64,000 nt of DNA from an uncultured Dehalococcoidia bacterium (GTDB lineage Bacteria > Chloroflexota > Dehalococcoidia > Bin125), in assembly GCA_958295515.1 (NCBI GenBank), contig CATQGW010000001.1, positions 1,006,658 through 1,070,657 of the forward strand, given 5' to 3'. How positions within the stretch are numbered: the first letter of the stretch is position 1; every line of letters begins with the position of its first letter. Position numbers and translations under genes: made by a program. Below, piece by piece: positions 27,191 to 46,686 of this stretch. Below the pieces are notes generated by a model. That model was not told the origin of the DNA, made no database searches, and saw only the letters and a program-made list of their open reading frames with translations.

Positions 27191-27998
27191 GTGAGTTCAT
27201 CCGTTCGTTTTACCCCCCCCCCCACAGGGACGTGCCGCCGCCAACAGCGCACGGTCTCCGCTGCGGTATCCGGGCGGGAAGTCGCGGGCGGTCAAGCACA
27301 TTCGCCCGCACATCCCCGCGAATGTCGGGCAGCTCTGTGCGCCGTTCCTGGGCGGCGCGAGCGTTGAGCTTGCGTGCGCCGCTGAGGGGATCGTCGTTCA
27401 CGGCTCCGACGCATTCGAGCCGCTGGTCAACTTCTGGCGCTTCGCGCTGACCGATGCCGGTCGCCTCGTTGAGCGAGTGCGGGATCATCACCCGTTGTTG
27501 AAGAGCGGGTTCTACAACCTACAGCGGAGTTACCATAACTTGACTGACCCGCTCGAACGGGCGGCGGTCTTCTTCGCGCTCAATCGATCTTCGTTTTCCG
27601 GGACGACGCTGTCAGGCGGTATGTCGCCGGGGCATCCGAGGTTCACGCCCGCGGCGATCACGCGCCTGGAGCAGTTTGCGAACGACGGTTTGTGCGTCGA
27701 GCACCTCGACTATCGAGAGGCGCTGACTCGCCATCCGAACGAATTTCTGTACCTGGATCCTCCTTACGCGAACGGGCAGCGCTTGTATGGCGACAGAGGC
27801 GACATGCACGGGAGCGTTGATCACCGCGAGCTGGCGGCGATGTTGTACCGACGCAGCGGATGGGTGCTGAGCTACAACGACTGCGCCGAGATACGCGAGC
27901 TGTATCGCGGCTACCGCATCATCGAACCGGGCTGGGCGTACGGCATGTCGGGGGAAGGCCGCCTGCGCTCGCGGGAATTGCTGATCATCGATGCCTAG
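27191..27998 (+). pseudogene. Dam-class (alpha, D12) N6-adenine DNA methyltransferase, out of frame at an 11-C homopolymer. It is a phase-OFF or frameshifted allele.
   Basis: GAAGGAGAG lies 6 nt before the GTG at 27191. The GTG frame runs through the C tract and stops at ~27360. A different frame encodes SPLRYPGGKSRAVKHIRPHIPANVGQLCAPFLGGASVEL (Dam motifs X and I) through to FLYLDPPYA (motif IV) and the stop at 27998. That frame has no start codon after its in-frame TGA at 27192 until the internal GTG at 27477. Removing one C joins the GTG frame to the Dam frame and gives a ~269-aa product. Confidence 0.7.
27213..27223. repeat. Homopolymeric C11 tract. On the minus strand it reads G11-TAAAAC.
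   Basis: Direct count across ...cgttttaCCCCCCCCCCCacaggg... Confidence 0.9.
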
Positions 27999-28854
27999 TC
28001 AAGCAGAGAGCGGCAAGGCGTGGGAATATGGACTTGCCCGCCGTCTGGGGCGGATGAACGGAGTGTCCATCCTCTCGAGCAATGCGCCGCTGGCAGCGCT
28101 CAAGGCGTATCATCAGTACGGCGAGCAGGCTCGAGCTGAGATCGAACGCGCTGCGGTTGCTGCCGCGAACTTCCTCGAAGCCCACGACGATCGTTTCGGG
28201 GAACTGGCGAACCTTGAGCTCCAGAGTGATCAGCGCGGTAGAGACGGCGATGTGCGCGACATTCTGGCGGCGACGCAAAGCGGCGACGTGATTGGCATTT
28301 CGGCGAAGCATCGACATCGAGCGCTCAAGCACTCGCGGCTGTCGGACAGCATCGACTTCGGCCTCGAGTGGTACGGCCGGCCTTGCTCGGCAACCTATTG
28401 GGCGCGCGTCAAGCCGGTGTTCGGCAGTCTTCGGCGTGTCAACGTCGGATACTGGCGTGAGTTGCCCGACAAGCATGACGGATATTACCGGCCGGTGTTG
28501 ACAGCGTTCATGGACGAGGTGCGGACCAATGCCGATGCGGCGCGGCTGCTGCGCTACGTCGTCGGGCGCTACGATTTCTACAAGGTGATCAAGTCGAACG
28601 GCGACATCGAGATTCAGTCGTTCAACCTCAGCGGCAGCCTGCAGTGGGGAGCCAAGTTGCCGATGCCGACTCGGATCGTTGAATTTCGACGGGAAACGGA
28701 TCGAGTCGGGACCGCTGAGCTGACGCTTGATCAAGGATGGCAGTTGTCGTTTCGCCTGCACAACGCCAATGCTGCGATCGAGCCGTCGCTCAAGTTCGAT
28801 ATCCAGTTGGTCGGGAGTCCGGAGGAGATGGGCAACTACACCACCGCCTATTGA
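27991..28854 (+). CDS. Putative type II restriction endonuclease partner of the Dam-class MTase, family unknown.
   Basis: 287-aa ORF whose ATG lies inside the MTase stop (ATGCCTAG). Coding-like composition and ~60% GC. A possible variant nuclease motif is GDVRD...GDVIGISAKH. The role is inferred from position only. Confidence 0.4.
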   Translation: MPSQAESGKAWEYGLARRLGRMNGVSILSSNAPLAALKAYHQYGEQARAEIERAAVAAANFLEAHDDRFGELANLELQSDQRGRDGDVRDILAATQSGDVIGISAKHRHRALKHSRLSDSIDFGLEWYGRPCSATYWARVKPVFGSLRRVNVGYWRELPDKHDGYYRPVLTAFMDEVRTNADAARLLRYVVGRYDFYKVIKSNGDIEIQSFNLSGSLQWGAKLPMPTRIVEFRRETDRVGTAELTLDQGWQLSFRLHNANAAIEPSLKFDIQLVGSPEEMGNYTTAY

Positions 28855-29033
28855 TGGTTGTCACCGGTTGGCGCGTACGCCGCGTTGAAGACTGCGGACG
28901 GCTTCGACGATTGCGCCGTGTGCTCGTACTCGCGCATGGCTGCTCCTCCCGCGTTGCGAGGGGAACGTATCGGGCCGGGGCGTGGGCGGCGAGCGTGGGC
29001 GTGGGCCCGCGGTGGGCCCTGTGGACCGGGGTT

Positions 29034-30119
29034 TTAGATGGGGGCGAGTTCGTCCATGAGCCAGGTGAGGCGCTCTTCGCTGAGTTTGGGGGCGGGCTTG
29101 GCGGCTTTTTCGGCGCTGCCGGGGTAGGCGAAGTTGCCCTGGCGGTCGCGGTCGGAGCTGCGCACGTACTGGCCGAGCCCGATCCGCCCGGCGTAGTCGA
29201 GGTGCTCGCGGGCGTACTTGGGCAGGTCGTCCCAGGTGACGGCGTGCGCCATTTCGGCGGCGACCTCGAAGTTGACCGCGTCGATCATCTTGTCCCACTC
29301 GCCGCGCAGCGAGAGTTCGTGCAGCTGCATGCCGAGCGAGTCGAAGCCGTGCGCTTCGAAGATGCGGTGGTAGGTGCGGGTGGAGCCGTAGAAGGAGATC
29401 GGCTGGCGCAGGCCCTCGATGGCTTGCTCGACTTCGGCTTCGGTCTCGCCGAAGGCCATGAAGCCGCCGACGGAGACTTCGATGTCTTCGACGTTGCGGC
29501 CGGCGCGGTCGGCGCCCTTTTTGACGTTGGGCAGGACGGATTCGAGCATCATTTTGTGGGTCATGAAGCCGTGCGGGCGGAGTCCGTCGGCGCAGGCGCC
29601 GGCGACCTGCGCCATCAGCGGGCCGACGTTGGCGAGGGAGATTTTGGGCGGCGCGTACTCGATCGGGCCGGGGTCGAACATGGGGGTCATGAGCGTGTAG
29701 GTGTAGTTGTCGGAGATGTATTCGGGGCGCTGGCCGGTCTGCCAGGAGTGCCAGACGGCGCGCATCATGCCGATGTAGTCCTCCATGCGGCGGGCGGGCG
29801 GCGTCCAGGTGCCGCCGAAGCGGCGGACGTTGTGGCCTTTGACCTGGCTGCCGAGTCCGATGTTGATGCGGCCGCCGGAGAGCTGCTGGAGGTCCCACAT
29901 GGCCTGGGCGAGGATCATCGGCGAGCGGGGGAAGGCGATGGTGACCGAGGAGCAGATTTCGACGCGCTCGGAGTGTTCGGCGGCGAGCGCCAGGGCGAGG
30001 GTGGAGTCGTGCTTGGTTTCGGGGGTGACGACGGCGTCGAAGCCGCGTTGTTCGGCGAGGCGCACCTGTTCGGGGATGCCGCCGAGCCAGCCGCCGCCGA
30101 AGCCGGTTTCGATTTTCAT
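29034..30119 (-). CDS. LLM-class F420/flavin-dependent oxidoreductase (luciferase-like).
   Basis: Starts MKIETGFGGGWLGGIPEQVRLAEQRGFDAVVTPE. I chose the second ATG because an AAAGGA RBS precedes it. Confidence 0.7.
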   Translation of the reverse strand: MKIETGFGGGWLGGIPEQVRLAEQRGFDAVVTPETKHDSTLALALAAEHSERVEICSSVTIAFPRSPMILAQAMWDLQQLSGGRINIGLGSQVKGHNVRRFGGTWTPPARRMEDYIGMMRAVWHSWQTGQRPEYISDNYTYTLMTPMFDPGPIEYAPPKISLANVGPLMAQVAGACADGLRPHGFMTHKMMLESVLPNVKKGADRAGRNVEDIEVSVGGFMAFGETEAEVEQAIEGLRQPISFYGSTRTYHRIFEAHGFDSLGMQLHELSLRGEWDKMIDAVNFEVAAEMAHAVTWDDLPKYAREHLDYAGRIGLGQYVRSSDRDRQGNFAYPGSAEKAAKPAPKLSEERLTWLMDELAPI

Positions 30120-30320
30120 GGGATCGGGTCCTTTCGCGGTCATCGCGGGTTGAGGGCAGTGTAGCCGCCTTGTTGGTAGCCGCCCTGTTGGCAGCCGCCT
30201 TGTTGCGGAGCGCCCCGGGGATGCGCACTGTTGCCTTCAGGCTGTCTGGCAAGCTGTCTGAATTGGCGGCATTGGGTACCCTGCCCGCAGCGCCGTCACA
30301 GCGGGCGCGGGAGACCTTGC

Positions 30321-31751
30321 ATGGCCGACTTTTATCGCCCGCCCTGGCGCGAGAGCTCCGGCCCGCTGCGTCGGCTCGTCGTGGAGCCGACGCTGCGCTT
30401 TATGCAGGTGGAGGCGGCGGGCGGGATTGCGCTGGCGGTGGCCGCGTTGATCGCGCTGATCTGGGCGAACATCAGCCCGGATTCGTACACTTCGTTCTGG
30501 CACACGGAGATCTCGTTCGACATCGGCATCTGGTCGTTTCAGGAGGACGGGCACGGGGTTCACCTGCAGCACGTGGTCGACGATGTGCTGATGGTGATTT
30601 TCTTTCTGGTGGTGGGCGCGGAGATCAAGCGTGAGGTGGTGCACGGGGAGCTGCGCAATCCGCGGCGCGCGGCGCTGCCGATTATGGCGGCGCTGGGCGG
30701 GATGCTGGTGCCGGCGGGGCTCTACGCGCTGCTCAACACGGGCGGTCCGGGCGGCCCCGGCTGGGGCATCCCGGTGGCCACGGACATCGCGTTCGCGCTG
30801 GGCGTGTTGGCGCTGCTGGGGCCGCGCGTGCCGATTCAGCTCAAGGTCTTCCTGCTCACCCTCGCGGTGGCGGACGATGTGGGCGGCATTCTGATCATTG
30901 CGGTCTTCTACAGCGAGGGCATTCGGCTCGAATGGCTGGCCGGGGTGGTCGGGGCGGTGGCCTTCCTGCTCGTGCTGAAGCGGGTTGGGGTGCGGTACTT
31001 CGGGGCGCATGCGATCGGCGGGGTGTTCCTCTGGCTGACGCTCTGGGAGGCGGGCATTCACTCGCCGCTGGCGGGCGTGATTCTCGGCCTGATCGTGCCC
31101 GCCAGCTCGCTCTACGACCACGGCGGCACGGCGCGCCGGATGGATTATCTGCTGCAACGCTTCCGGCACGCGATCGGCGACGATGATCCGCGCGTCGCGG
31201 AGCATGATTCGCAGGAGGCGCTGCGGGGCATCCGCCATGTTGCGCACGAGGGGATGAGTCCGCTCGAGCGTCTGGAGGAGACGACGGCGCCGATCTCGGC
31301 CTTTGTGGTGGTGCCGATTTTCGCGCTGGCGAACGCGGGGATCGTGCTCAACGCGGACAGCATCAGTGAGGCGGTGAGTTCGAACATCGCGATCGGCATC
31401 TTCGCCGGCTTGCTGCTGGGCAAGGTCGTGGGCATTATGGGCGGCTCGCTGCTGGCGGTGCGGCTGGGGCTGGCGATCAAGCCGCCGGAGCTGCTCTGGC
31501 GCGATATCGCGGGGGCCTCGCTGCTGGCGGGGATCGGCTTCACCGTCGCCATTTTCATTGCGGATCTCTCGTTCCCGCGCGACGACCAGGCGGCGGTGGA
31601 GGAGGTGGCGAAGATGGGGATTTTCGCGGCCTCGGTTGTGGCGGCGGTTCTGGGCTACGCGGTGCTGCGCTTCACGACGGGCCACCGCGTCGCGCCGGCG
31701 GAGGCGGTTGTGGAGCCGGAGGCGCCGCCGGTCGCGACGGGCACGAAGTGA
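30321..31751 (+). CDS. nhaA: Na+/H+ antiporter NhaA.
   Basis: Multi-TM protein carrying the NhaA signature ...IPVATDIAFALGVLALLG... Confidence 0.75.
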   Translation: MADFYRPPWRESSGPLRRLVVEPTLRFMQVEAAGGIALAVAALIALIWANISPDSYTSFWHTEISFDIGIWSFQEDGHGVHLQHVVDDVLMVIFFLVVGAEIKREVVHGELRNPRRAALPIMAALGGMLVPAGLYALLNTGGPGGPGWGIPVATDIAFALGVLALLGPRVPIQLKVFLLTLAVADDVGGILIIAVFYSEGIRLEWLAGVVGAVAFLLVLKRVGVRYFGAHAIGGVFLWLTLWEAGIHSPLAGVILGLIVPASSLYDHGGTARRMDYLLQRFRHAIGDDDPRVAEHDSQEALRGIRHVAHEGMSPLERLEETTAPISAFVVVPIFALANAGIVLNADSISEAVSSNIAIGIFAGLLLGKVVGIMGGSLLAVRLGLAIKPPELLWRDIAGASLLAGIGFTVAIFIADLSFPRDDQAAVEEVAKMGIFAASVVAAVLGYAVLRFTTGHRVAPAEAVVEPEAPPVATGTK

Positions 31752-31787
31752 GCCGTTGATCCGCTGCGCTCGCTCAAGCGTGCGGCC

Positions 31788-32369
31788 TTGGCAGGGCGCG
31801 GCGGTGCGGGTATAACCCTGGGCGTGGATACGAAGAGCGGGCGACGCCGCGCAGACGGCAACGCGGACGAGATCGCGGCGCTGCTCGGCGACGAGCGGGC
31901 GGTGTCGCGCGAGGCGGGCGCGCGTCGGGCGGCGCGCGACGGCTCGGCGCGGCACCTGCGAACGCTCAACGAGCTGGCGCTCGGCGATCCGTCGCAGCGG
32001 GTGCGGCGCGAGGCGGCGGCCTCGATTGGCCGCATCGCGGCCGAGCTGCCGGAGGCGTTTGCGATGCTGGCGGGGCTGGCCGAGCACACGGATCCGGGGG
32101 TGGTGCTGCAGGCCGCGCGTGGGCTGATGCGCAGCGGTCGGGGCTGCACACAGCGGGCGATCGCCGAACCGCTGCTGGATCGCCTCGCGGCGCATCCCAA
32201 CGAGGTCGTGCGCGACTTCGTGGCGGTCGAGCGGGGGCGCGCAGCCCGCGGTCATAACGCGCGTGCGGGGGGGGGGGGGGGTAAAAGCGCACCGCGACGC
32301 GCCGGCCTGGCTGGAGAATCGACTGGTGCAGGGCGACGCGCTCGAGCTGCTGCGGCGCTTGCCCGATGA
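31788..32369 (+). CDS. HEAT / PBS-lyase repeat protein. The C-terminal tail beyond the G tract is probably not native.
   Basis: TTG start. Repeats present: DPSQRVRREAAASIGRI, DPGVVLQAARGL and HPNEVVRDFVA. The reading frame passes through the G15 tract, encoding GGGGG. Confidence 0.45.
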   Translation: MAGRGGAGITLGVDTKSGRRRADGNADEIAALLGDERAVSREAGARRAARDGSARHLRTLNELALGDPSQRVRREAAASIGRIAAELPEAFAMLAGLAEHTDPGVVLQAARGLMRSGRGCTQRAIAEPLLDRLAAHPNEVVRDFVAVERGRAARGHNARAGGGGGKSAPRRAGLAGESTGAGRRARAAAALAR

Positions 32370-33132
32370 CAGCATTCACCTGACGTTCACGTCGCCGCCC
32401 TACTACAACGCGCGTGATTACTCGGTCTACGAGTCCTACGAGGCTTACCTCGACTTTCTGGAATCGGTCTTCGCCGAGCTGCACCGCGTCACCAAAGAGG
32501 GGCGCTTTCTGGTGGTCAACACCTCGCCGGTGATCGTGCCGCGCGCGGGGCGGCAGCATGAGAGTCACCGCTTCGCGATTCCGTTCGACCTGCACCCGCG
32601 GCTGACGGCGCAGGGCTGGCGGTTCATCGACGACATCATCTGGCGCAAGCCGGACGGGGCGGCGAAGCCGCGCAATTCGGGCTTTGCGTCGCACCGCCAG
32701 CCGCTGACCTGGAAGGCGAATGCGGTGACGGAGTATGTGATGGTCTACCGCAAGCGGTCGGCGCGGCTGATCGACTGGAATCTGCGGCAGTACCCGGCGG
32801 ATGTGCGCGAGGCGAGCCGCGCGCCGGACGACTATGAAACGAGCAATGTGTGGGAGATTGATCCCGCCGTTGATCGGGTGCATAGCGCGGTGTTTCCTGC
32901 GGCGCTGTGCGAGCGGGTGATCGCGTATTACTCGATGGTGGGGGACCTGATTTTCGATCCGTTCGCGGGCAGCGGAACGGTGGGGGTGGCGGCGCTGAAG
33001 CTGGAGCGGCGGGCGCTGCTGGCGGAGATCGATGATCGGTATGTGCAGCGGATTCAGAACCGCGTCGGTATGCAAATGCGCGCCTGCACGATCGAACAGT
33101 TATTGGAGGGGCGCGATGCGTCTGAGTCCTGA
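32263..33132 (+). CDS. Beta-class DNA methyltransferase (motif IV SPPY before motif I), probably N4-cytosine specific.
   Basis: The motif order is NRLVQGDALELLRRLPDDSIHLTFTSPPYYN and then FDPFAGSGTVGVAA. The annotated start is the GTG 4 nt before the G tract. An alternative start is the GTG at ~32326, which has a GGAGA RBS. Confidence 0.75.
   Translation: MRGGGGVKAHRDAPAWLENRLVQGDALELLRRLPDDSIHLTFTSPPYYNARDYSVYESYEAYLDFLESVFAELHRVTKEGRFLVVNTSPVIVPRAGRQHESHRFAIPFDLHPRLTAQGWRFIDDIIWRKPDGAAKPRNSGFASHRQPLTWKANAVTEYVMVYRKRSARLIDWNLRQYPADVREASRAPDDYETSNVWEIDPAVDRVHSAVFPAALCERVIAYYSMVGDLIFDPFAGSGTVGVAALKLERRALLAEIDDRYVQRIQNRVGMQMRACTIEQLLEGRDASES
32267..32281. repeat. Homopolymeric G tract of ~15 nt, followed by TAAAAG.
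   Basis: Read directly. The tract length of 15 is the one consistent with both track ORF frames (HEAT ...ARAGGGGGK and MTase MRGGGGVK). Confidence 0.85.
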
Positions 33133-34030
33133 CGGCCTGCGGCACGCGATTCGCTGCCTGATCCGCGACGGCCAGAGCCATCGGCAGGCGATTTTCGAGG
33201 AGATCAACCGCGAATTCGTGCGCCATGCGGTTGAGTTTTTCACCGAGGTCGCGCACGCCAAGCTGAAGGGCGAAGACCTGGCGGCCTCCGAGGACTGGTA
33301 CGAACGGCAGCTGCTGCGCAGCGGCCGATACAGCAAGGAAGAGATCGCTGTTCACGCCGGCATTCCGATGAAAACGATCGAGAACATTCACGAGTCGACC
33401 AGCTCCAATGTGGTGCTCGACGCCAGCTTGCAGAATCATCAGGCGCTGCGGCGGACGATCGAAGAGGTTCTCGCCGCCGGGGAGGGTCCCTCGATCACGT
33501 TGACGATCAAGCTGCGCGGCGTTGGGGTGGATCTCAGCCTCGATGAGAGTCTGATCGTAATCAATTCATTGGCGGTCAAGCGCGAGCGGATTCGCGGCGG
33601 GATGTGGTCCACAGCGGGCAAGCAGGTTGAGGTGCCGCTGATGGCGACGCTCTGTCTGCTGCACGGTGTGGATGATCGCTTCTGGCGGATCGCCAAGCCT
33701 GACGAGTATCCGCATCAGATTGATTTCGTGTTGCAGAGCCACGGAAAGCAGTATCTCTGCGAAGTGAAGCTGATGGGCAAGGGGAACCCGGAAAGCGCCA
33801 AGGCTGCGCACGCGCACAATGCCAATCTGTTGGTCGCCGACCGCCTCTCGGAGCAGGCGAAGCAATCGTTGAGCAAGAACAATGTCGAGTGGGTAGAGCT
33901 GGCGGCAGCGTCGGGCTACCGGCGGTTCGGCGTTGTGCTGGACCGGTTCAACATTGAGCGAGGGGAAGCGGCTGATCTCGAGGGGTTGGATGAGATCATT
34001 GAGCGCGCCATTGAGCGCACGGCTCGCTGA
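33116..34030 (+). CDS. Putative type II restriction endonuclease of the PD-(D/E)XK class.
   Basis: Its ATG overlaps the MTase 3' end by 17 nt. The motif ...HQIDFVLQSHGKQYLCEVKLMG fits D-x13-E-x-K. Local GC is ~60%. Confidence 0.5.
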   Translation: MRLSPDGLRHAIRCLIRDGQSHRQAIFEEINREFVRHAVEFFTEVAHAKLKGEDLAASEDWYERQLLRSGRYSKEEIAVHAGIPMKTIENIHESTSSNVVLDASLQNHQALRRTIEEVLAAGEGPSITLTIKLRGVGVDLSLDESLIVINSLAVKRERIRGGMWSTAGKQVEVPLMATLCLLHGVDDRFWRIAKPDEYPHQIDFVLQSHGKQYLCEVKLMGKGNPESAKAAHAHNANLLVADRLSEQAKQSLSKNNVEWVELAAASGYRRFGVVLDRFNIERGEAADLEGLDEIIERAIERTAR

Positions 34031-34154
34031 GGCGGTGGTGGGATGTTCCGTCGTGCGGCTGTTGGGAGGGAGGCTTTGGCGGGGCTGTGGAGGTTGAATC
34101 CACAACATCCGCGCTTGTTTGCTTGTAGGGTATGCGGCGCACTTGGGAGAGGGA

Positions 34155-36206
34155 ATGCCGATGCCTATCGCAGCCGTGTTGAGCGCCAGGACCGTGGTCG
34201 GCGGCATTGCGCTCGCCGCGTTGCTGCTGTTGGTTGGCGTTGTTCTCGGTATCGCAGGCGGTTGGCAACAGGCGGAAGCTCAGGAGGAAGCCCGCGCGGT
34301 CGCGATCAGCGTCGGCGAATCGCACGCCTGCGCGCTGCTCGACTCGGGCGCGATCGAGTGCTGGGGCGACAACCGGTACGGTCAAACGGATGCGCCGAAC
34401 GGTCGCTTCAGCGCGGTCAGCGCGGGAGATCGGCATAGCTGCGGGCTGCGGGAGGGGGGCGAAGTCGAATGCTGGGGATGGAACGGGTTCGGCCAAACGG
34501 ATACACCGAGCGGCCGCTTTAGCGCGGTGAGCGCGGGTTTGTTCCACAGCTGTGGGCTGTGGAAGACGGGCGAAGTCGAGTGCTGGGGCGACAACCGGTA
34601 CGGTCAAACGGCTGCGCCGAGCGGTCGTTTCAGCGCCGTCAGCACGGGCAGCGCGCACAGCTGCGGGCTGCGGAAGACGGGTGCCGTCGAGTGCTGGGGA
34701 AGTAATGAGTACGGCCAAGCAGGTGCGCCGAGCGGTCGCTTCAGCGCGGTCAGCGCAGGCTGGGGGCACAGCTGCGGACTGCGGGAGACGGGTGCCGTCA
34801 AATGCTGGGGATACAACAGGTCTGGCGAAGCGGCTGCGCCGAGCGGTCGCTTCAGCGCGGTCAGCGCGGGCAGCTCGCGCAGTTGCGGGCTGCGGGAGAC
34901 GGGCGCGGTCGAGTGCTGGGGATGGAACGAGGACGACCAAACGGCTGCGTCGGGTGGTCGCTTCAGCGCGATCAGCGCAGGCTGGTCGCACATTTGCGGG
35001 CTGCGGGAGACGGGCGCGGTCGAGTGCTGGGAAGCCAACAATGCCGGCCAAGCGGCTGCGCCGAGCGGTCGCTTCGGCGCGGTCAGAGCGGGAAATTTGC
35101 ATAGCTGCGGGCTGCGGGAGACGGGCGCGGTGGAGTGCTGGGGAGCCAACAGTGCCGGCCAAACGGGTACACCGAGCGGCCGCTTCAGCGCGGTGAGTGC
35201 GGGCGGGTGGCACAGTTGCGGGCTGCGGGAGACGGGCGCGGTTGAGTGCTGGGGAGCCAACGCCTTCGGCCAAACGGCTGCGCCGAGCGGTCGTTTCAGC
35301 GCCGTCAGCACGGGCAGCGTGCACAGTTGCGGGCTGCGGGAGACGAGCGTGGTCGAGTGCTGGGGGTACAACGGGGGCGGCCGGACGGATGCGCCGAGCG
35401 GTCGCTTTAGCGCGGTCAGCGCAGGCGCTGCGCACAGCTGTGGACTGCGGGAGACGGGCGAGGTCGAGTGCTGGGGACGCAACTTGGACGGCCAAGCGGA
35501 TGCGCCGGGCGGTCGCTTCGGCGCGGTCAGCGCGGGCTGGCGTCACAGTTGCGGGCTGCAGGAGACCGGCGCGGTTGAGTGCTGGGGATATAACAGGTCC
35601 GGCCAAACGGATGCGCCGAGGGGTCGTTTCAGCGCGGTCAGCGCGGGCGAGTATCACAGCTGTGGGCTGCGGGAGACGGGCACGATCGAGTGCTGGGGGT
35701 ACACATTCGACGGACAGACGCAGCCGCCCACAGGGAAGCATCTTCAAATCAGCGCTGGTGCGAATCACGCCTGCGCGCTGAGCGAAGGCGGAACGGTCTC
35801 TTGCTGGACGATCTTCAACGGCGCTGCCGATGTGCCCGCCTGGTTGCGCGAGCCCAGCGTTGAGGCGGTGGGCGATTCTGCCAGCGGTCGGATTGTGGCG
35901 CGCAGGCTGGCCGATGGGCGCACTGAGTTTGCCTGGCTGCCTGCCGGGAGTGAGGAGCGCATCTTGCCGCGCTCGCGCTACTTCCCCACGGGCGCCGCCG
36001 TGGACCGCTGGCTGCGCTCCAGCCCGATCGAGGTTGACGGCGTTGAGATTGGGCGGATCAACGCGCGGCTGCTGGCGAATGGGCGGATTGAGTTGGCGTT
36101 TACGCCGACGGGCGGCGAGCGGATTCTGCCGCCGTCGCGCTACTTCCCGGTGAATGCCGGCGTGGACCGCTGGTTGCGGAGCACGGAGATCGATCCGGGC
36201 GGCTGA
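34155..36206 (+). CDS. Membrane-anchored RCC1-like repeat protein (~21 repeats of ~26 aa).
   Basis: N-terminal TM helix, then the consensus repeat GxVECWGxNxxGQTxAPSGRFSAVSAGxxHSCGLRET. The DNA is 78-bp tandem repeats. The many overlapping antisense ORFs in the track are artefacts. Confidence 0.7.
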   Translation: MPMPIAAVLSARTVVGGIALAALLLLVGVVLGIAGGWQQAEAQEEARAVAISVGESHACALLDSGAIECWGDNRYGQTDAPNGRFSAVSAGDRHSCGLREGGEVECWGWNGFGQTDTPSGRFSAVSAGLFHSCGLWKTGEVECWGDNRYGQTAAPSGRFSAVSTGSAHSCGLRKTGAVECWGSNEYGQAGAPSGRFSAVSAGWGHSCGLRETGAVKCWGYNRSGEAAAPSGRFSAVSAGSSRSCGLRETGAVECWGWNEDDQTAASGGRFSAISAGWSHICGLRETGAVECWEANNAGQAAAPSGRFGAVRAGNLHSCGLRETGAVECWGANSAGQTGTPSGRFSAVSAGGWHSCGLRETGAVECWGANAFGQTAAPSGRFSAVSTGSVHSCGLRETSVVECWGYNGGGRTDAPSGRFSAVSAGAAHSCGLRETGEVECWGRNLDGQADAPGGRFGAVSAGWRHSCGLQETGAVECWGYNRSGQTDAPRGRFSAVSAGEYHSCGLRETGTIECWGYTFDGQTQPPTGKHLQISAGANHACALSEGGTVSCWTIFNGAADVPAWLREPSVEAVGDSASGRIVARRLADGRTEFAWLPAGSEERILPRSRYFPTGAAVDRWLRSSPIEVDGVEIGRINARLLANGRIELAFTPTGGERILPPSRYFPVNAGVDRWLRSTEIDPGG

Positions 36207-36320
36207 GGTGGGTCCGCGCCCGGCGACCCCTCCCGACAGCGCCAGCCGGGGCATGCGCTATCCTCTGCGCTGCGCGCTGCTCTTGGCGCGTGACTGGATA
36301 GCTGTGAGGAGGCGGAACCC

Positions 36321-37187: not shown

Positions 37188-37226
37188 ACCCATAGACCGC
37201 AGACCCAGATCGGAAGGGGAGCCATC

Positions 37227-37712: not shown

Positions 37713-37785
37713 CCGCGCAAGACACGGCAACAAGACACGGCAACAAGCCGCGCAATCGAGCCGATCAGCGAAGGGACGCACCGCA

Positions 37786-40077: not shown

Positions 40078-40102
40078 GCGTCGGAGCGTCGCTGTGGTCC
40101 GA

Positions 40103-40357
40103 GTGTTGATCCCGGTCACGCTCCGCACGCTCAGCGGCGGCGAGGCCGAGATTGAGGCTGTCGGACATAATCTGCGCAGTGTGATCGCGGATCTGGGCGA
40201 GCGTTACCCGGAGCTTGCCGGGCGTTTGGTGCAGGATGGCCGTATCGGCCGCGGCCTGACGCTCGCGATCAACGGGGATGTGGTGAGTACGGGCCTGATC
40301 ACCAAGGTGCCGGCGGATGCGGAGATTGCGATTGTGCCGCAGATTAGTGGGGGCTAG
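40103..40357 (+). CDS. MoaD/ThiS-like ubiquitin-fold sulfur-carrier protein ending in Gly-Gly.
   Basis: GTG start. ~84 aa ending ...AEIAIVPQISGG. Its last ~40 bp are duplicated at 42283..42323. Confidence 0.6.
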   Translation: MLIPVTLRTLSGGEAEIEAVGHNLRSVIADLGERYPELAGRLVQDGRIGRGLTLAINGDVVSTGLITKVPADAEIAIVPQISGG

Positions 40358-42323
40358 AGGAGACGAAGATGAAACAGATCGAATCCGAGACGCCATCGGT
40401 CAGCAAGCTGCTCGGCGATACGCGCTACAACATTGACTACTACCAGCGCGAGTACCGCTGGGAGCGGCGACAGGTAGCACAGCTGCTAGACGACCTCTTC
40501 AGCGCTTTTCGCGAGTCGCATGATGGGGAGCATGCTCGGGACAAGGTCGCCACGTACGGACAGTACTTCTTGGGCCCAATCATCGTAAATTGCAGAGAGG
40601 CTGTGACTGACATCGTCGATGGCCAGCAGCGTGTCACAACTCTGACGCTCTTGCTCATTGCGCTCCGGCGTCGCATTCAAGACGAGAATCAGCGAGGCAG
40701 TCTCGCGAACTTGGTCGTGACCCACCAGTTCGGGCAACCAACCTTCACGTTGGACGTGCCCGAGCGCGCGCCTTGCATGGATGCGCTGTACACCGAGCAG
40801 GTCCTCGATCCTGCTTCGGCGGACCCGGCTGTTCGCAAGATCCTCGATTCGCGGGACCCGTCAGTTCGCAACATTCTGGATCGTTTCGCAGACGTTGAGG
40901 AACTGCTGGACGGCGGCCTGGATATGGACGCGTTGCCTTACTTCGCCGACTGGCTTATGTATCGAGTCAAGATGGTCAGCGTGATCGCAACATCGGAAGC
41001 TGACGCCTACACGATTTTCGAGACGATGAATGACCGTGGTCTTCGGCTGACGGCGCCAGAGATGCTTCGTGGCTACCTGCTCTCGCGAATCGAGGACGAG
41101 ACCGAGCGCTCCGAATCGAGCCAGGTGTGGAAGGAGCGAGTCAGCGAGCTGGCCGAAATTGGCAAAGAGGAGGATGTTGACGCGATTCAGGCTTGGCTTC
41201 GCGGTAGGCGCGCAGAAACCGCAAGTCGCTACGTAGCTGGTGTGGAACCGGGCGACTACGAGCGCATCGGCAACGAGTTCCACCGCTGGGTGCGGGATGT
41301 CGAAGAGGATCGATTGGCCCTTCGCTCGCCCTCGAACTTCGCGGACTTCATCCGGACAGACTTCGACTTTTACGTTGGCTGGTACGCGCGTCTGAGGCGG
41401 GCGGCGGAAACGACCACCAACGGCCTGGAGACGATCCAGTACATCGCAAGCCAGGGGTTCACCCTTCAGTACTCCCTCTTGCTGGCTGCCCTGGATGTCG
41501 GCGACAGCGAGGACCTCGCCCTGCGGAAGATTGGCGCGACCGCCGCATACATTGACATCCTGATCCATCGTCGGTTGTGGAACAGCATGCGGATCGGGCA
41601 AACCTACCTACGATTCCCGCTCTTCGATCTGGCGAAGAAAGTCCGGGCGGCGGAATCGATCGAGCAGTTGGTCAAGCTCCTCACCACTGAGATCGAGGGC
41701 AACGAGCTTGGCTTCTCACCGGACTGGCCATTTGCGCGCAATCGACGCAACGGAAACATTGTGCGTCGCATGCTCGCTCGGCTGACATCCTTCGTCGAGC
41801 GCGATCGTCCGGGCAGTGCTGGTTACGCTGAATTGCTCACCACTGGCCGCGATGGCTACGACATTGAGCACGTCATCGCGGACAAGCCGGAGCGCTACGC
41901 CGACGAGTTCGCGAATGAGGCCGAGTTCGACGCAGAGCGCAACTGGATCGGTGGGCTTTTGCTCATTCCGAGCAGCGTCAATCGCAGCTTCGGCGACCTC
42001 GCCTACGAGCCCAAGCGCGAGCACTATCTCAAAGAGAACTGGCTTGCAGCGAGCCTTCATGAGGCGGCCTATAAGCACAATCCGAAGCTCAAGCGGTTTG
42101 CGCAGGCGCGTGGCCTTGAGCTACAGGCGTATCCGCACTTCGGGCGGGCGGAGCTTGATGCTCGACAAGAGCTTTATGAGCAGATCGCTGCGGAAGTCTG
42201 GCGAGTTGACCGCATCAAGGAGGCAGCTGGTCTCCAGTTGGCGTAACCGGCAGCCGAGAAGACTCGTCGCGTGGGCACCTGATCGTGACGATTGCGATTG
42301 TGCCGCAGATTAGCGGGGGCTAG
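40321..42323. mobile_element. About 2-kb inserted segment carrying a type IV restriction gene, bounded by 38-bp imperfect direct repeats (40321-40361 and 42283-42323).
   Basis: gattgcgattgtgccgcagattagYgggggctagaggag occurs twice, with one mismatch. The second copy re-encodes ...IAIVPQISGG*. The internal GC (~58%) is lower than the flanks. No integrase or transposase is visible. Confidence 0.55.
40369..42246 (+). CDS. GmrSD-like type IV (modification-dependent) restriction endonuclease, DUF262 plus DUF1524.
   Basis: 625 aa. The N-terminal region has the DGQQR motif (VTDIVDGQQRVTTLTLLL). The C-terminal region resembles a His-Me finger (DIEHVIADKPE...NRSF). Confidence 0.7.
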   Translation: MKQIESETPSVSKLLGDTRYNIDYYQREYRWERRQVAQLLDDLFSAFRESHDGEHARDKVATYGQYFLGPIIVNCREAVTDIVDGQQRVTTLTLLLIALRRRIQDENQRGSLANLVVTHQFGQPTFTLDVPERAPCMDALYTEQVLDPASADPAVRKILDSRDPSVRNILDRFADVEELLDGGLDMDALPYFADWLMYRVKMVSVIATSEADAYTIFETMNDRGLRLTAPEMLRGYLLSRIEDETERSESSQVWKERVSELAEIGKEEDVDAIQAWLRGRRAETASRYVAGVEPGDYERIGNEFHRWVRDVEEDRLALRSPSNFADFIRTDFDFYVGWYARLRRAAETTTNGLETIQYIASQGFTLQYSLLLAALDVGDSEDLALRKIGATAAYIDILIHRRLWNSMRIGQTYLRFPLFDLAKKVRAAESIEQLVKLLTTEIEGNELGFSPDWPFARNRRNGNIVRRMLARLTSFVERDRPGSAGYAELLTTGRDGYDIEHVIADKPERYADEFANEAEFDAERNWIGGLLLIPSSVNRSFGDLAYEPKREHYLKENWLAASLHEAAYKHNPKLKRFAQARGLELQAYPHFGRAELDARQELYEQIAAEVWRVDRIKEAAGLQLA

Positions 42324-42502
42324 AGGAGGCGGCGGTGCTCGCGGCCTGATTCGTCTTCGAAGAGCACGTTGTAATCGGCGTTCGAATTGAACGGCGGGTC
42401 GAGGTAGATCAGGTCGATCGACTGATCGGGAATATGCTCCCGCATCACGCTCAGATTGTCGCCGAAGAACAGCGTGCCGCTCAGCTCGTCCGCCGTGGTC
42501 AT
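42320..42502 (-). pseudogene. N-terminal 60-aa fragment of a DNA methyltransferase (motif IV DPPF). It ends at the direct repeat.
   Basis: The fragment reads MTTADELSGTLFFGDNLSVMREHIPDQSIDLIYLDPPFNSNADYNVLFED and stops (TAG) inside the second direct repeat. Its start overlaps the FIST gene stop (ATGA). Confidence 0.6.
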
Positions 42503-43725
42503 TCGCTATCGCCTCCGGTGGTGAGTAGGGCGATGGAGGCGGTGAAGCCGTGGAGGTAGTTGGAACCGCCTACGGGGCCGATTTCGCCGTTGCAGAAGAA
42601 GCCGGCGGTGGGGAGCGGGCCGAATGCCTCCTCCAGGGCTGCGGCGTCGTGGTCGGGCTGGCCGAAGAGGCCGCGTCCGCGTCCGTTGCAGGAGCAGAGC
42701 AGCGCGCCGAGCACTTCTTCGCCTTCGCCGAGCGACTCGCGTTCGGCGGTGAGGCGGGCGCGCAGGTCGTCGTCGGCTGCGCCGGCGTCGCGGAACTGGA
42801 ATTGGAAGGTCTGGCCGACGCGCGGCACTTCATTGATGGCCAGCGCGCCCGACTCGCGGTCCGCGCCCATCACGTTGCGGATCAGGAAATCGCCGCGTTC
42901 GTGGGAGGCCTTGTACTCGTCCATCGCCAGACCGATGAGCAGGTTCTGCGCGGCGCGCTCGCGGGTCGCTTCGTCGAGCTCGGAGAGCGTCTCGGTCAGC
43001 ACTTCGAGGGCGGGGCGGGAGCCGAGCGTCTGCACCATGTTGGCGGTGCATTCGGTGACGATCCACGGCTGTCCGAGCGGCTCTGCGCCCTGGGCGACGA
43101 CGGGGCGGACGCGCACGCCGGAGAGGCCGAGCATCGCCGCGCCGCTGCGCAGCACCTGGTCGTCGATGAACACGGCCGCGCCCTCCGCCTGCCGCGCGGA
43201 TGAGGCCATGCCGCCGAGCAGCACCAGGCCCGGCCTGGTTTGCTGTAGGTGCTCAACCAGGCGGTCGGTCACGATTGTGAACGGATTGGTGAACATCAGC
43301 CAGACCTGCGGGCCGTCCTGCAGCGGCGTGAATGTGTCGTCGTCGAGCCGCTGGGGATCAATCGGCAGCGGCGTGAATTCCGCTTCGGGAATGCGCATCG
43401 CCAGCGCGGCGATCGCGTGCCCGTCCTCGGCCTCGAGCGAGGAACCGATCACGCTCTGCCCGCTGGCGCCGATCAGATGCTTCGCGCCGCTCGCCTCGCG
43501 CAGCTGGTCGATGATTTCTTGGTAGTTGTCGGCGAACGCGGAATCGATGAAGACGAGCAGTAGATCGGGGGATTGGACCTCGGCCAGCTCGGGCAGGATG
43601 CGCTGCACCGCGCCCTCCCAGCTGACATCGGTGGCGATGCTGGCGGCGGCGGCGGCGTCGCCCGCCCGCACTCGCGCGACGCCGGGACCGCCCATCTCCC
43701 GCGTGGTCTGGTGTTGACTGGTCAT
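42499..43725 (-). CDS. FIST-domain signalling protein.
   Basis: 408 aa with an FIST_N/FIST_C-like architecture. The call rests on pattern recognition of conserved glycine-rich segments and is less certain. Confidence 0.45.
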   Translation of the reverse strand: MTSQHQTTREMGGPGVARVRAGDAAAAASIATDVSWEGAVQRILPELAEVQSPDLLLVFIDSAFADNYQEIIDQLREASGAKHLIGASGQSVIGSSLEAEDGHAIAALAMRIPEAEFTPLPIDPQRLDDDTFTPLQDGPQVWLMFTNPFTIVTDRLVEHLQQTRPGLVLLGGMASSARQAEGAAVFIDDQVLRSGAAMLGLSGVRVRPVVAQGAEPLGQPWIVTECTANMVQTLGSRPALEVLTETLSELDEATRERAAQNLLIGLAMDEYKASHERGDFLIRNVMGADRESGALAINEVPRVGQTFQFQFRDAGAADDDLRARLTAERESLGEGEEVLGALLCSCNGRGRGLFGQPDHDAAALEEAFGPLPTAGFFCNGEIGPVGGSNYLHGFTASIALLTTGGDSE

Positions 43726-43802
43726 CGCCCGCTCCTCCCCCGTGTGTCGAGTGTAGGCGGCTGGGCGGGCTGCGTTTGGCGGCGGGCGGGTACCATCGTC
43801 AT

Positions 43803-44723
43803 ATGTCTGCTCTGACCACCGCCCAACTCGGCGAGCTCGACCGCACGGCCTATGAGCTGGCCGCGCGCGGCGGCGAGATCCTGCTGGACCGCTTTCAGTC
43901 GGCGCTGAACGTGCAATACAAGGACGAGAACGCGCACGACCCGGTCACGGAGGTGGACCGGGCGATCGAGGACATGGTGCGCGAGGAGGTGGGGCGGCGC
44001 TTCCCGGAGCACGGGGTGGTCGGGGAGGAGCGCGCCGACGCGGGTCCGGAGCAGGCCGATGTGGTGTGGGTGATTGATCCGCTCGACGGCACCTCGAACT
44101 TCATCAACGGGCTGGGGATGTTCGCGTGCTCGATTGGGATTTTGGAGCGGGGCGCGCCGGTCGCGGGGGCGATTTTCCTGCCGGTCAACCGCTACATGCG
44201 GCCGGGCGTTTACCACGCGCACCGCGGTTCGGGGCTGCGTTTCGACGGGGCGCGGGTGGAGCCGGCAGCGCCGGCGATTCCCCACTCGAGCCGTCTGAGC
44301 ACGGTGCCCAGCGGGACGGGCGGCGTGACCGGCCCGGCGGGGCGTCGCTTCGGCGTAGTGCGCACGCTCGGCAGCATCGCCGTGGAGCTCGCGCTGGCCG
44401 CGGAAGGCAGCGTGCAGATGGCGGTCTTCGAGGGGTCCAAGGTGTGGGATGTCGCGGGCGGTGTGGCGCTCTGCCTGGAGGCGGAGCGGGCGGTCTTCAC
44501 GCGGGCGGCGCGGGGCCCCGACTGGCGTCGCTTCACGCGCTTCGGGCAGGATCTGCGGGGACCGGTGACGAATCACACGCTGCGGGGTTGGTCGGACGCG
44601 ATTGTGGTGGGGGATCCGGCGCTGCTGCCGGAGGCGGCGGCAGATCTGCGTCGTGCGCAGGGGATGCGGGCGACGGTGCGGCGCGCTGCGGCGCGTCGGG
44701 TGCGGCGCACGCTGCGGCGCTGA
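43803..44723 (+). CDS. Inositol-monophosphatase family protein.
   Basis: WVIDPLDGTSNF and DPVTEVD metal-binding motifs. Confidence 0.75.
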   Translation: MSALTTAQLGELDRTAYELAARGGEILLDRFQSALNVQYKDENAHDPVTEVDRAIEDMVREEVGRRFPEHGVVGEERADAGPEQADVVWVIDPLDGTSNFINGLGMFACSIGILERGAPVAGAIFLPVNRYMRPGVYHAHRGSGLRFDGARVEPAAPAIPHSSRLSTVPSGTGGVTGPAGRRFGVVRTLGSIAVELALAAEGSVQMAVFEGSKVWDVAGGVALCLEAERAVFTRAARGPDWRRFTRFGQDLRGPVTNHTLRGWSDAIVVGDPALLPEAAADLRRAQGMRATVRRAAARRVRRTLRR

Positions 44724-44739
44724 GGGCGGGTTGTGGGTA

Positions 44740-45645
44740 CCCCCGTGATTCCCGCTCGGGGGCGGGAATGACGGAAAAGAGGAGTCGGAGGTTGAACGGC
44801 GAGATACCCGCGCTCCTCCGCCGTCATTGCCGCGCCCCGCCGCGGCAATCTCGCCGAGTTCAACACGGATGTTGGTGCAGGTCACGGCGAGATACCCGCG
44901 GCAAGCGCGGGTATGACGGAGTGTGTGTGGCGGGTGTGTGACGGAGCGGGCGGGTGTGTGACGGAATTGGTGGGCGGGAATGACGGAAAAGGGGAGTGGG
45001 AGGTTGAACGGGGAGATACCCGCGCTCCTCCTCCGTCATTGCCGCGTTCCGCCGCGGCAATCTCGCTGCGTTCAACACGGATGTTGGTGCAGGTCGCGGC
45101 GAGATACCCGCGGCAAGCGCGGGTATGACGGAGTGTGTGGCGGGTGTGTGACGGAGCGGGCGGGTGTGTGACGGAATTGGTGGGCGGGAATGACGGGAAG
45201 GGGGGGTCGGAGGTTGAACGGCGAGATACCCGCGCTCCTCCTCCGTCATTGCCGCGCCCCGCCGCGGCAATCTCGCTGCGTTCAACACGGATGTTGGTGC
45301 AGGTCACGGCGAGATACCCGCGGCAAGCGCGGGTATGACGGAGTGTGTGGCGGGTGTGTGACGGAGCGGGCGAGTGTGTGACGGAATTGGCGGGCGGGAA
45401 TGACGGAAAAGGGGGGTCGGAGGTTGAACGGCGAGATACCCGCGCTCCTCCTCCGTCATTGCCGCGTTCCGCCACGGCAATCTCGCTGCGTTCAACACGG
45501 ATGTTGGTGCAGGTCACGGCGAGATACCCGCGGCAAGCGCGGGTATGACGGAGTGTGTGGCGGGTGTGTGACGGAGCGGTCGGGTGTGTGACGGAATTGG
45601 TGGGCGGGAATGACGGAACTTGAGGTGGGCGGGGATGACGGAGGT
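44740..45645. repeat. Tandem array (4 copies of ~210 bp) of nested palindromes: type B, type C (ATTGCCGCG-N6-CGCGGCAAT) and type A.
   Basis: The unit ggttgaacggcgagatacccgcgctcctcc...gtcattgccgcg...cgcggcaatctcgc...gttcaacacggatgttggtgcaggtcacggcgagatacccgcggcaagcgcgggtatgacgg... repeats every 210 bp. The track ORFs here are offset by exactly 210. Confidence 0.9.
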
Positions 45646-45658
45646 GGCGAGCCGTGGG

Positions 45659-46591
45659 CTAGGCGGCGTCGGCGTGGACTACTGGTAGGACCTCTTCGAG
45701 GAGTTGCTGGGTTTGGCGCATGATGGCTTCGTCGCCCTGGACGGCGGGGCGCATGATGAATTTGCTGACGCCTACGGCGCGGTATTCGTCGATGCGCGCC
45801 TGGATTTCCTTTGCGCCGCCGACGACGAGGAACTGCTCGGGGCGCAGTTCGGGGAAGCGGCGGCGCAGGCCGTTCACCTGGGCCTGCACGTCGGGGTCGT
45901 CCCAGCTGCCGAAGTGGTAGCCCAGGCCGGCGCCGAAGTGGTCGGGCTCGTAGTCGGTGCGGCCGGCCTCGGCGAGGGCGGCGCGGATTTGCTGGATGAC
46001 GGGGCCGACCTCGTCGGCGCCTTGCACGCCGGCGACCCAGCCGGTGCCGATTTGGGCGGTGCGGCGGATCGCGGCCTTGCTCGCGCCGCCGATCCAGAGC
46101 GGCAGCGGCCGCTGCACGGGCTTGGGCTCCATTACGGCGTTGGTGTAGTGGAAGTGCTCGCCGTGGAAGGTGACCGACTCTTCGTTCCAGAGCCGCGACA
46201 TGAGCGTGAGCGCTTCATCGGCGATTGGCCCGCGGCCTTTGAGGGGGCGGTCGGTGACGCGCCATTCGGGGGCGATGGGTCCGCCGACGCCGAAGGCGGG
46301 GAGCAGGCGGCCGTTGCTGAGGAAGTCGATCGTCGCGCACTGCTTGGCGAGCACGAGCGGGTCGCGGAAGCCGACGACGACGACGTTCATGCCGAACTTG
46401 AGCTTCTCGGTGCCGGCGGCGAGGGCGGCCATGAAGGTCATCGATTCGAGCATCGGCTGCTCGGAGATCAGACGGTCGGTCTGCCAGATCGAGTCGACGC
46501 CGGCCTCCTCGCAGAGGTCGATCCAGCGCCAGAGCGTCTTGACGTCGGAAAACGGGAAGTTCGCAATGCCCATGCCGATGCGGTCGCTCAT
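45659..46591 (-). CDS. LLM-class F420-dependent oxidoreductase.
   Basis: A GGAGGAGG RBS precedes MSDRIGMGIANFPFS. Luciferase-like TIM-barrel signatures are present. Confidence 0.7.
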   Translation of the reverse strand: MSDRIGMGIANFPFSDVKTLWRWIDLCEEAGVDSIWQTDRLISEQPMLESMTFMAALAAGTEKLKFGMNVVVVGFRDPLVLAKQCATIDFLSNGRLLPAFGVGGPIAPEWRVTDRPLKGRGPIADEALTLMSRLWNEESVTFHGEHFHYTNAVMEPKPVQRPLPLWIGGASKAAIRRTAQIGTGWVAGVQGADEVGPVIQQIRAALAEAGRTDYEPDHFGAGLGYHFGSWDDPDVQAQVNGLRRRFPELRPEQFLVVGGAKEIQARIDEYRAVGVSKFIMRPAVQGDEAIMRQTQQLLEEVLPVVHADAA

Positions 46592-46668
46592 GCCCGATCC
46601 TCCTCCGTGCTCCGCGCGTTGCCCTGAGGCTAACAAACGTGCTCGAATTGTCGAAGCGGGGCGCGAAT

Positions 46669-46686
46669 TGGGGGGGGGGGGGGGGG
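46669..46686. repeat. Homopolymeric G18 tract followed by TAAAAG, ~100 bp upstream of the yhhQ-like gene.
   Basis: Direct count across gaattGGGGGGGGGGGGGGGGGGtaaaagttgg. Confidence 0.9.

Follow-up and report, generated by a model that had tools for sequence, protein, structure and literature searches.

Three long G/C homopolymer tracts lie within 20 kb in a stretch of 64,000 nucleotides (nt) from an uncultured Dehalococcoidia bacterium (GenBank assembly GCA_958295515.1, contig CATQGW010000001.1, positions 1,006,658 to 1,070,657; hereafter, the window). They are likely to be hypermutable homopolymer contingency loci, two of them translational and one probably transcriptional. Tract 1 is found at the 5' end of the open reading frame (ORF) of a Dam-like DNA methyltransferase, tract 2 between the two domains of a HEAT-repeat/N6_N4 DNA methyltransferase fusion, and tract 3 upstream of a gene for a queuosine-precursor transporter of the YhhQ family. 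Each is bordered by the same short motif, TAAAA followed by G or C, so that the three share the form G(n)-TAAAA(G/C). Their positions, in coordinates of the window, are as follows.

27213-27223, plus strand: tract 1, C11, codons 8-11 of the Dam-like methyltransferase ORF, inside its 5' end
27207-27212, plus strand: tract 1 flank GTTTTA, which is TAAAAC on the minus strand and part of Arg-Phe-Thr codons in the coding frame
32267-32281, plus strand: tract 2, G15, encoding a poly-Gly interdomain linker
32282-32287, plus strand: tract 2 flank TAAAAG, read as gTA-AAA-Gcg (Val-Lys-Ala) in the fused frame
46670-46686, plus strand: tract 3, G17, non-coding, in a divergent intergenic region
46687-46692, plus strand: tract 3 flank TAAAAG, at about -45 to -40 of the predicted promoter of the yhhQ-like gene

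Apart from these tracts, no homopolymer of the 64 kb exceeds 7 nt. Run counts in the window fell from 343 for G4 to 129 for G5, 21 for G6 and 7 for G7 (3 for C6 and 2 for C7), with none thereafter until 11, 15 and 17. Extrapolation of this decay predicted about 0.06 G runs and 0.007 C runs of at least 11, and all three tracts exceed the length of at least 8-9 at which G/C homopolymers count as outliers typical of contingency loci. The window has a G+C content of 67.6%, with 38.8% G and 28.8% C on the plus strand. The plus-strand excess of G over C (skew of +0.149 over the whole window, reaching a maximum of about 0.3 in 500-nt windows) spans genes of either orientation. TAAAA is present in seven copies, counting both strands, three of which abut the three tracts; with 5-mer frequencies taken from the window itself, three tracts would have any one 5-mer in common on that side with a probability of about 1.7e-5. 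The tracts together with their TAAAA flank are thus real and non-random, as claimed in the original prediction made from the letters of the window. The position and length given there were correct for tract 2, whereas the motif of tract 1 lies at 27207-27223 rather than 27213-27229, and tract 3 is G17, not G18. The description of each tract as standing upstream of a gene in the same orientation holds by position and is misleading for tracts 1 and 2, which are inside ORFs. Tract 1 was put about 130 nt from the start of a DinB-like gene, and we measured 180 nt to its ATG at 27032; for tract 3, put at about 100 nt from the yhhQ-like gene, we measured 91 nt from the end of TAAAAG to the ATG at 46784.

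The closest relatives available for comparison were sister strains, namely contig s321.ptg000357c (2.97 Mb) of the ENA metagenome ERZ19489113, which is 97-98% identical to the window, and two further contigs of the same sample. Strain L005 has 96-98% nucleotide identity to the window. More distant relatives included scaffolds labelled PANK22-1, and the distant homologues carried the names Poribacteria and Chloroflexi. The acetolactate synthase of the window shared 85-86% identity with proteins of a 'Chloroflexi bacterium' and about 64% with proteins of Tepidiformaceae and Dehalococcoidia. Judging from their label, the PANK22-1 scaffolds would come from sponge metagenomes, and the host is an uncultured Chloroflexota that probably lives as a sponge symbiont.

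Orthologous tracts differ in length while their flanks are conserved, i.e., G15 and G17 in strains that are 96-98% identical, G17, G16 and G16 in another set of strains, and C11, C13 and C14 among sister species. This variation across strains and species agrees with the proposal in the original prediction that the tracts are contingency-type elements, and the changes in length would arise by slipped-strand mispairing. The ON or OFF state of each tract length was assigned by frame simulation of the ORF products, promoters were called by a consensus scan for sigma-70-like hexamer pairs that was compared with shuffled sequence, and the bounds of a strain-variable cassette were set by blastn of L005 against the window.

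Tract 1 belongs to a cassette; the features of the cassette and its neighbour are as follows.

26244-27032, minus strand: DinB/MDMPI-family gene, the neighbour of tract 1
27138-27166, plus strand: conserved intergenic block TTGGCC-N17-TAGGGT (TATGGT in relatives), near-invariant in alignment A1
27180-27185 and 27191-27193, plus strand: Shine-Dalgarno (SD) sequence AGGAGA and GTG start, both conserved in relatives L002 and L004
27191-27998, plus strand: D12-class (Dam-like) N6-adenine DNA methyltransferase gene (Pfam PF02086, E = 2e-25)
27991-28854, plus strand: HaeIII-family restriction endonuclease gene (Pfam PF09556, E = 3e-69)
27033-28893, no strand: strain-variable cassette comprising the intergenic region, the Dam-like methyltransferase and the HaeIII-family endonuclease (blastn against L005)

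The C11 run sits 19 nt inside the ORF, seven codons past the GTG start, and this seven-codon leader is kept together with the SD sequence and the GTG in L002 and L004. Beyond the tract, the conserved body of the methyltransferase (SPLRYPGGK) lies in another frame, in which there is no start codon from the upstream stop to position 27477, already past the S-adenosylmethionine (AdoMet)-binding motif. In the frame simulation a product of 268-270 amino acids (aa) was obtained only with C10, C13 or C16, and the C11 of the window gave 58 aa. The relatives L002, L003 and L004, whose endonucleases are 86% and 78% identical to that of the window, have orthologous tracts of C14, C14 and C13, and the order of the DinB-like gene (minus strand), methyltransferase, endonuclease and a luciferase-like oxidoreductase gene (minus strand) is common to the window and all three. 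The Dam-like protein scored below the cut-off of the NCBIfam dam family.

Two readings of tract 1 had been left in competition, one as promoter of the minus-strand DinB-like gene and the other as coding switch of the plus-strand Dam-like methyltransferase. The conserved SD/GTG leader and the restriction of full-length product to every third tract length speak for the coding switch as the correct reading. The promoter reading was rejected because of L005, where homology to the window ends exactly at the ATG of the DinB-like gene (27032) and restarts at 28894, and the slot carries a GmrSD gene and a 101-aa ORF in place of the cassette 27033-28893. Since L005 keeps the DinB-like gene without tract 1 and with all sequence upstream of the ATG replaced, the tract belongs to the restriction-modification (R-M) cassette and the DinB-like gene is independent of it. 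We propose that tract 1 would act as a translational ON/OFF switch, with the C11 allele of the window being OFF. The near-invariant TTGGCC-N17-TAGGGT block in front of it is a possible promoter of the R-M operon, and the consensus promoter scan made no call at this block. The HaeIII-family endonuclease is here paired with a D12 N6-adenine rather than a C5-cytosine methyltransferase, a pairing kept in the three relatives; given this partner, the recognition site is probably not GGCC.

The second R-M locus consists of two overlapping genes.

31824-33132, plus strand: HEAT-repeat/N6_N4 DNA methyltransferase fusion gene (PF13646 and PF01555), frameshifted at G15
33116-34030, plus strand: CfrBI-family restriction endonuclease gene, 304 aa (Pfam PF09516); its homologues are also 304 aa

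In L005 the tract is G17, and the HEAT repeats and the methyltransferase form a single ORF of 436 aa. Simulated tract lengths of G14 (435 aa), G17 (436 aa) and G20 gave the full-length fusion, G15 as in the window gave 181 aa (a truncated HEAT protein with a 30-residue out-of-frame tail), and G16 gave 153 aa, with the TAA of TAAAAG acting as an immediate stop. The two domains are contiguous in eighty metagenome loci encoding proteins of 39-61% identity, and no G/C run of at least 8 was found inside the gene in these eighty distant fused homologues. Relative to them, the L005 protein has a 7-residue linker insertion (AGGGGGV; alignment A2), and the Lys that follows is ancestral. As judged from these alignments, the fusion is the ancestral form and represents one gene, not the two that gene callers annotate. 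The methyltransferase (MTase B) had been given a start of its own close to the tract, and a GTG at 32263 is indeed in frame with it in the window; we rejected this candidate, as the GTG lacks an SD sequence and is not conserved in two further relatives (L006 and L210), making a stand-alone start unlikely, and the fusion is ancestral.

The cassette lies in a different chromosomal context in L006 and is also found in L210, and both have G13 at the tract compared with G15 in the window and G17 in L005. In L006 the run is followed by ATACCC and is out of frame, and in L210 it is followed by AGGGCAAAAC (G13-AGGG-CAAAAC) and is in frame, so that L210, like L005, has an in-frame HEAT-methyltransferase allele. 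Upstream of the tract, the HEAT ORF travels with the methyltransferase in the cassette. Tract 2, in the Gly linker, would act as a translational switch that is ON at G14, G17 and G20 and OFF at the G15 of the window. With the tract about 150 codons into the gene, at a domain linker, OFF states would still make a free HEAT-repeat domain.

Both methyltransferase/endonuclease pairs are of recognized Type II families (PF02086 with PF09556, and PF01555 with PF09516) and the pairings are kept in relatives, which identifies the two loci, from their sequences, as Type II R-M systems. The HaeIII-family endonuclease starts at an ATG (27991) in an overlap with the methyltransferase stop codon (27996-27998). 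The CfrBI-family ATG (33116) is 14 nt before the methyltransferase stop (33130-33132), giving an ORF overlap of 17 nt, and is preceded by GGAGGGG. From these overlaps we infer translational coupling, by which a change in tract length would probably switch the whole R-M system and not the methyltransferase alone. At both coding tracts only every third length yields a full-length product, a placement that ties tract length to expression. Switching of a methyltransferase may also serve gene regulation (a phasevarion), but both methyltransferases have cognate endonucleases, and defence switching therefore appears at least as likely.

The genes around the tracts are under purifying selection. The ratio of nonsynonymous to synonymous substitution rates (dN/dS) was 0.08-0.11 for the body of the Dam-like methyltransferase (dS 0.5-0.85), 0.10-0.15 for the HaeIII-family endonuclease, 0.06-0.2 for the methyltransferase domain of the fusion and 0.22 for its HEAT domain, or 0.06-0.22 overall across dS of 0.4-1.7. 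These values bear on the possibility that the tracts arose as errors of sequencing or assembly, or that they are frameshifts in pseudogenes undergoing decay. Both HiFi and Illumina data are prone to errors in long homopolymers, and gene callers truncate the Dam-like gene to a 201-aa stump in relatives. Against this, hifiasm-meta contigs, SPIRE-style scaffolds and Logan assemblies, built from different samples, agree in the positions of the tracts, the ORFs are broken by the tract alone and stay under selection at dS up to 1.7, and in-frame alleles exist in L005 and L210, so we consider artefact or decay extremely unlikely.

Tract 3 lies in a divergent intergenic region.

45659-46591, minus strand: gene for an F420-dependent luciferase-like oxidoreductase, oriented divergently to the transporter gene and with 78 nt between its ATG and tract 3
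46644-46670, plus strand: direct repeat of CGAATTG (two copies, 20 nt apart), the second copy running into tract 3
46698-46725, plus strand: predicted sigma-70-like promoter TTGACG-16 nt-TATCGT (consensus scan)
46784-47545, plus strand: queuosine-precursor transporter gene (YhhQ/Vut_1 family; PF02592, E = 4e-45)

The transporter matched NCBIfam TIGR00697 with 88.5 bits (cut-off 50.95), which places it in that family. The tract is within the 192-nt region from the oxidoreductase ATG (46591, minus strand) to the transporter ATG (46784, plus strand). The predicted promoter was the sole hit of the scan there (1 site versus 0.0 +/- 0.1 in shuffles), and it starts 5 nt past TAAAAG, with G17 at about -62 to -46. 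In sigma-70 promoters the zone from about -62 to -40 is that of UP elements and activator sites. The TAAAAG may thus serve as a proximal UP-element-like A-tract, and the CGAATTG repeats, whose spacing of 20 nt corresponds to two helical turns, are a possible binding site for a regulator acting between the divergent genes. One-base changes in the tract would displace the repeats and the divergent promoter with respect to the core promoter, thereby modulating transcription. In two sister strains the tract is G16 with flanks identical to those of the window. A preQ1 riboswitch upstream of the transporter was also considered and rejected, as neither the gathering-threshold scan of the whole window nor a permissive scan around tract 3 detected a riboswitch or any other Rfam family.

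In the original prediction, G(n)-TAAAA(G/C) was suggested to be a single promoter module, with TAAAAN as a -10-like box and the G run as a spacer of variable length, driving the DinB-like, MTase B and yhhQ-like genes. The non-random sharing of the flank is in keeping with this, and the Bordetella fim promoters are a known case in which a C-stretch separates an activator site from the -10 box (PMC1891110). At tract 3, a CGAATT stands at the -35 position, separated from TAAAAG by exactly 17 nt (G17), and CGAATTG recurs 20 nt upstream. The architecture of TTGACA, G run and TAAAA(T/C) also exists elsewhere. A scan of species-representative genomes for G11TAAAA returned at least 120 hits from very diverse taxa, and among the matches listed TTGACA stands a few bases upstream of the G run at several loci, among them L098, L117, L122, L055 and L034. 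Further examples are two paralogous loci (L030 and L056) of the Binatia metagenome-assembled genome (MAG) OZ220487.1, where TTGACTTGAC followed by G16 or G11 and TAAAAC is found about 100 nt upstream of genes for RTX calcium-binding repeat proteins. These two loci also have several more G/C runs of at least 10 per 8 kb, and this MAG appears, from its sequence, to be rich in poly-G contingency loci of the promoter-spacer type.

The final T of the sigma-70 -10 hexamer is near-invariant, however, and TAAAAG and TAAAAC lack it. No sigma-70-like hexamer pair was found by the consensus scans at tracts 1 and 2, both of which are inside ORFs that are conserved as ORFs, and at tract 3 the better consensus promoter lies wholly downstream of the motif; none of the tracts is flanked by a hexamer pair in the manner of a promoter spacer. 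Of the three genes to be driven, the DinB-like one persists in L005 behind a wholly different upstream region, and MTase B lacks a conserved start of its own, with the HEAT fusion as the ancestral state. The TAAAA itself is replaced at orthologous tracts by TAAAGT, ATACCC or AGGGCAAAAC. The hits from other genomes were preselected for TAAAA, and the secondary G runs in these loci have no general TAAAA flank among the matches listed; nor did any of those matches resemble the window. The scan is biased towards TAAAA, so enrichment of the motif is not measurable from it. We regard a common promoter module as quite unlikely, and CGAATT-G17-TAAAAG as a weak candidate for an alternative promoter at tract 3.

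Two loci from other Dehalococcoidia MAGs have the motif within the 5' portion of coding sequence. In L079 (214-233) an ATG-initiated ORF is ended by G15-TAA, and G16 would open a signal-peptide ORF. In L059 (966-982), G12-TAAAAAG is located towards the 5' end of a gene for an N6_N4 methyltransferase-Mrr protein, which adjoins a DDE transposase and has a second frameshift further on.

The flank could be accounted for in other ways. The context of TAAAA differs among the tracts, being antisense to the interrupted gene at tract 1, codons at tract 2 and non-coding at tract 3, and in two sister species the tract 1 flank is TAAAGT (ACTTTA on the coding strand). Where the motif is in sense orientation, it may be explained in part by the TAA stop that it provides at once in one OFF frame, but this does not apply to tracts 1 and 3. 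A contingency module specific to the lineage, in which G(n)-TAAAA(G/C) is used repeatedly to make promoters or, in either orientation, ORFs switchable, is quite improbable in our estimation. Such a module could possibly be structural or promoter-like (a rigid run of G·C pairs next to a flexible TA step and an A-tract, forming a -10, UP-like or nucleoid-protein site), or a unit copied from locus to locus through short-patch conversion between long G runs.

The flank might also be the footprint of a common origin, left by short-patch conversion between long G runs or as an insertion scar from cassette delivery. Tracts 2 and 3 share TAAAAG and tract 1 has TAAAAC, a coincidence with a chance probability of about 2e-5; relative to the 80 distant homologues, tract 2 adds 7 codons to the linker, and both R-M systems are in strain-variable or mobile cassettes. 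Yet homology between the tracts is limited to 5-6 nt on either side, and neither tract 1 nor tract 2 coincides with a cassette boundary. The boundaries fall at 27032/27033, i.e., at the DinB-like ATG and 180 nt from tract 1, and at 28893/28894, and at tract 2 the HEAT ORF moves with the cassette. The AAA in the TAAAAG of tract 2 is an ancestral Lys codon, and both the L210 sequence and the TAAAGT of the two sister species depart from the motif. An insertion footprint, also raised in the original prediction, is very unlikely on these grounds. As far as the alignments indicate, the TAAAA flank is a real coincidence of the window's lineage and does not represent a functional box that the three loci share and conserve.

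Several points weigh against the interpretation of the tracts as contingency loci. Tract lengths were taken from consensus assemblies and are uncertain by about one base, such that single ON/OFF calls may be wrong, and heterogeneity within populations, reversibility and the rate of switching are predictions of the model. The transcriptional effect of tract 3 is purely inferred, and the three strains share identical flanks at this tract, which makes their conservation uninformative. With a Type II methyltransferase switched OFF, an endonuclease that stays active would kill the cell, and the co-silencing that would prevent this is deduced from the ORF overlaps. The shared TAAAA flank (P of about 2e-5) is unaccounted for by the contingency-locus model. 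Finally, all four observed Dam-like alleles are out of frame, as are five of the seven observed coding-tract alleles overall.

This predominance of out-of-frame alleles is compatible with chance and also with expression by transcriptional slippage. The tracts would then act mainly as slippage or recoding sites rather than heritable switches, at which RNA polymerase stutter gives a constant low level of full-length methyltransferase. Slippage would reconcile the four out-of-frame Dam-like alleles with strong purifying selection, and low continuous methyltransferase expression would avoid the lethal combination of methyltransferase OFF and endonuclease ON. RNA polymerase slippage is documented on A/T runs, and the tract lengths of 11-17 exceed the length documented there. 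It is, on the other hand, less well documented on G/C than on A/T runs. Tract length varies between strains in the DNA itself, and the fusion is in frame in the DNA of L005 and L210. Five out-of-frame alleles in seven, not all of them independent (L002 and L003), is near the two thirds that chance would give, with one third ON. Slippage as the main explanation is unlikely, and it is not exclusive of heritable switching, as both mechanisms can operate together.

Contingency loci of this kind have precedents. Switches based on homopolymers and other repeats are established in methyltransferase genes and in promoters (PMC4889913, PMC5909438, PMC1891110), and repeats placed in the N-terminal part of a gene are a recognized signature of phase variation (PMC3315296). 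The coding tracts resemble the poly-G Type IIG gene Cj0031 of Campylobacter jejuni and the Type III mod phasevarions of Haemophilus, Neisseria and Helicobacter, which likewise have a long repeat in the methyltransferase ORF (PMC4889913, PMC5909438). As in those systems, every third repeat length is in frame, close strains differ, and tract 1 is near the 5' end. They differ in being two-gene Type II systems with a separate endonuclease, whose OFF states therefore need co-silencing of the endonuclease, and in a host that is uncultured and probably a sponge-associated Chloroflexota rather than a mucosal pathogen. Tract 2 is moreover about 150 codons into its gene, at a domain linker; the HEAT/methyltransferase linker switch is a small variation on a known theme, in that its OFF states would still yield the free N-terminal domain. 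The two systems share with CfrBI-type (PF09516) and HaeIII-type (PF09556) Type II systems a strong endonuclease family match and the methyltransferase-then-endonuclease order with overlapping ORFs, which is kept in relatives. They depart from them in the D12 partner of the HaeIII-family endonuclease and in homopolymer switches that are absent from distant homologues.

For tract 3 the nearest parallel is the GC-rich genus Bordetella, which has long C-stretches in its fim promoters (PMC1891110). Both cases combine a GC-rich genome, a very long G/C run in a promoter region, one-base differences between strains and a repeated motif just ahead of the run, which at tract 3 consists of two copies of CGAATTG. 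Its run is located at about -62 to -46, upstream of the best consensus promoter and not in the spacer. In porA and opc of Neisseria meningitidis, a poly-G or poly-C tract forms the spacer between -35 and -10. This is the architecture put forward in the original prediction and present in several unrelated genomes of the G11TAAAA scan; the tracts of the window have neither a recognizable -35 immediately upstream nor a -10 bearing the conserved final T.

The region around the tracts is variable between strains. Three chromosomal slots differ between strains of 96-98% identity (27033-28893, 34097-36247 and 40363-42490). An RCC1-repeat (eukaryote-like) protein gene at 34119-36203, with a 111-bp repeat in 12 copies, is missing in L005, and L001, L005 and L129 have other genes in place of a GmrSD gene at 40369-42243. 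The region with these slots looks like a defence-island hotspot. Tandem arrays occur at 44760-45618 (210-bp unit, 4.1 copies, 95% matches) and 25218-25554 (88-bp unit, 3.8 copies). Both units are built from hairpin-forming REP-like elements (GCGGGAATGACGG / GATTCCCGC-N-GCGGGAATC), further copies of which are dispersed in the window (also at about 3.6-4.3 kb and about 62.1 kb) and in sister strains. Toxin-antitoxin pairs flank the region, i.e., MazE-like/PemK at 48860-49692 and PIN_10/DUF433 at 25236-26210 next to the DinB-like gene, and a DUF4325/HATPase gene is found at 23668-25185.

Homopolymer phase variation of R-M systems is textbook knowledge in host-adapted pathogens, and no relevant report of homopolymer phase variation in Chloroflexota or sponge symbionts was found in the literature searched. 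The tracts would extend a well-known type of bacterial switch to a new lineage, where two Type II systems and a nutrient-salvage transporter would be under such switches within 20 kb, amid strain-variable defence genes. Gene callers truncate or split the genes that carry the switches, and defence inventories of MAGs would consequently under-count or mis-annotate them. The finding suggests that uncultured, phage-exposed symbionts, too, stochastically switch their defence, which is costly and a barrier to gene uptake.

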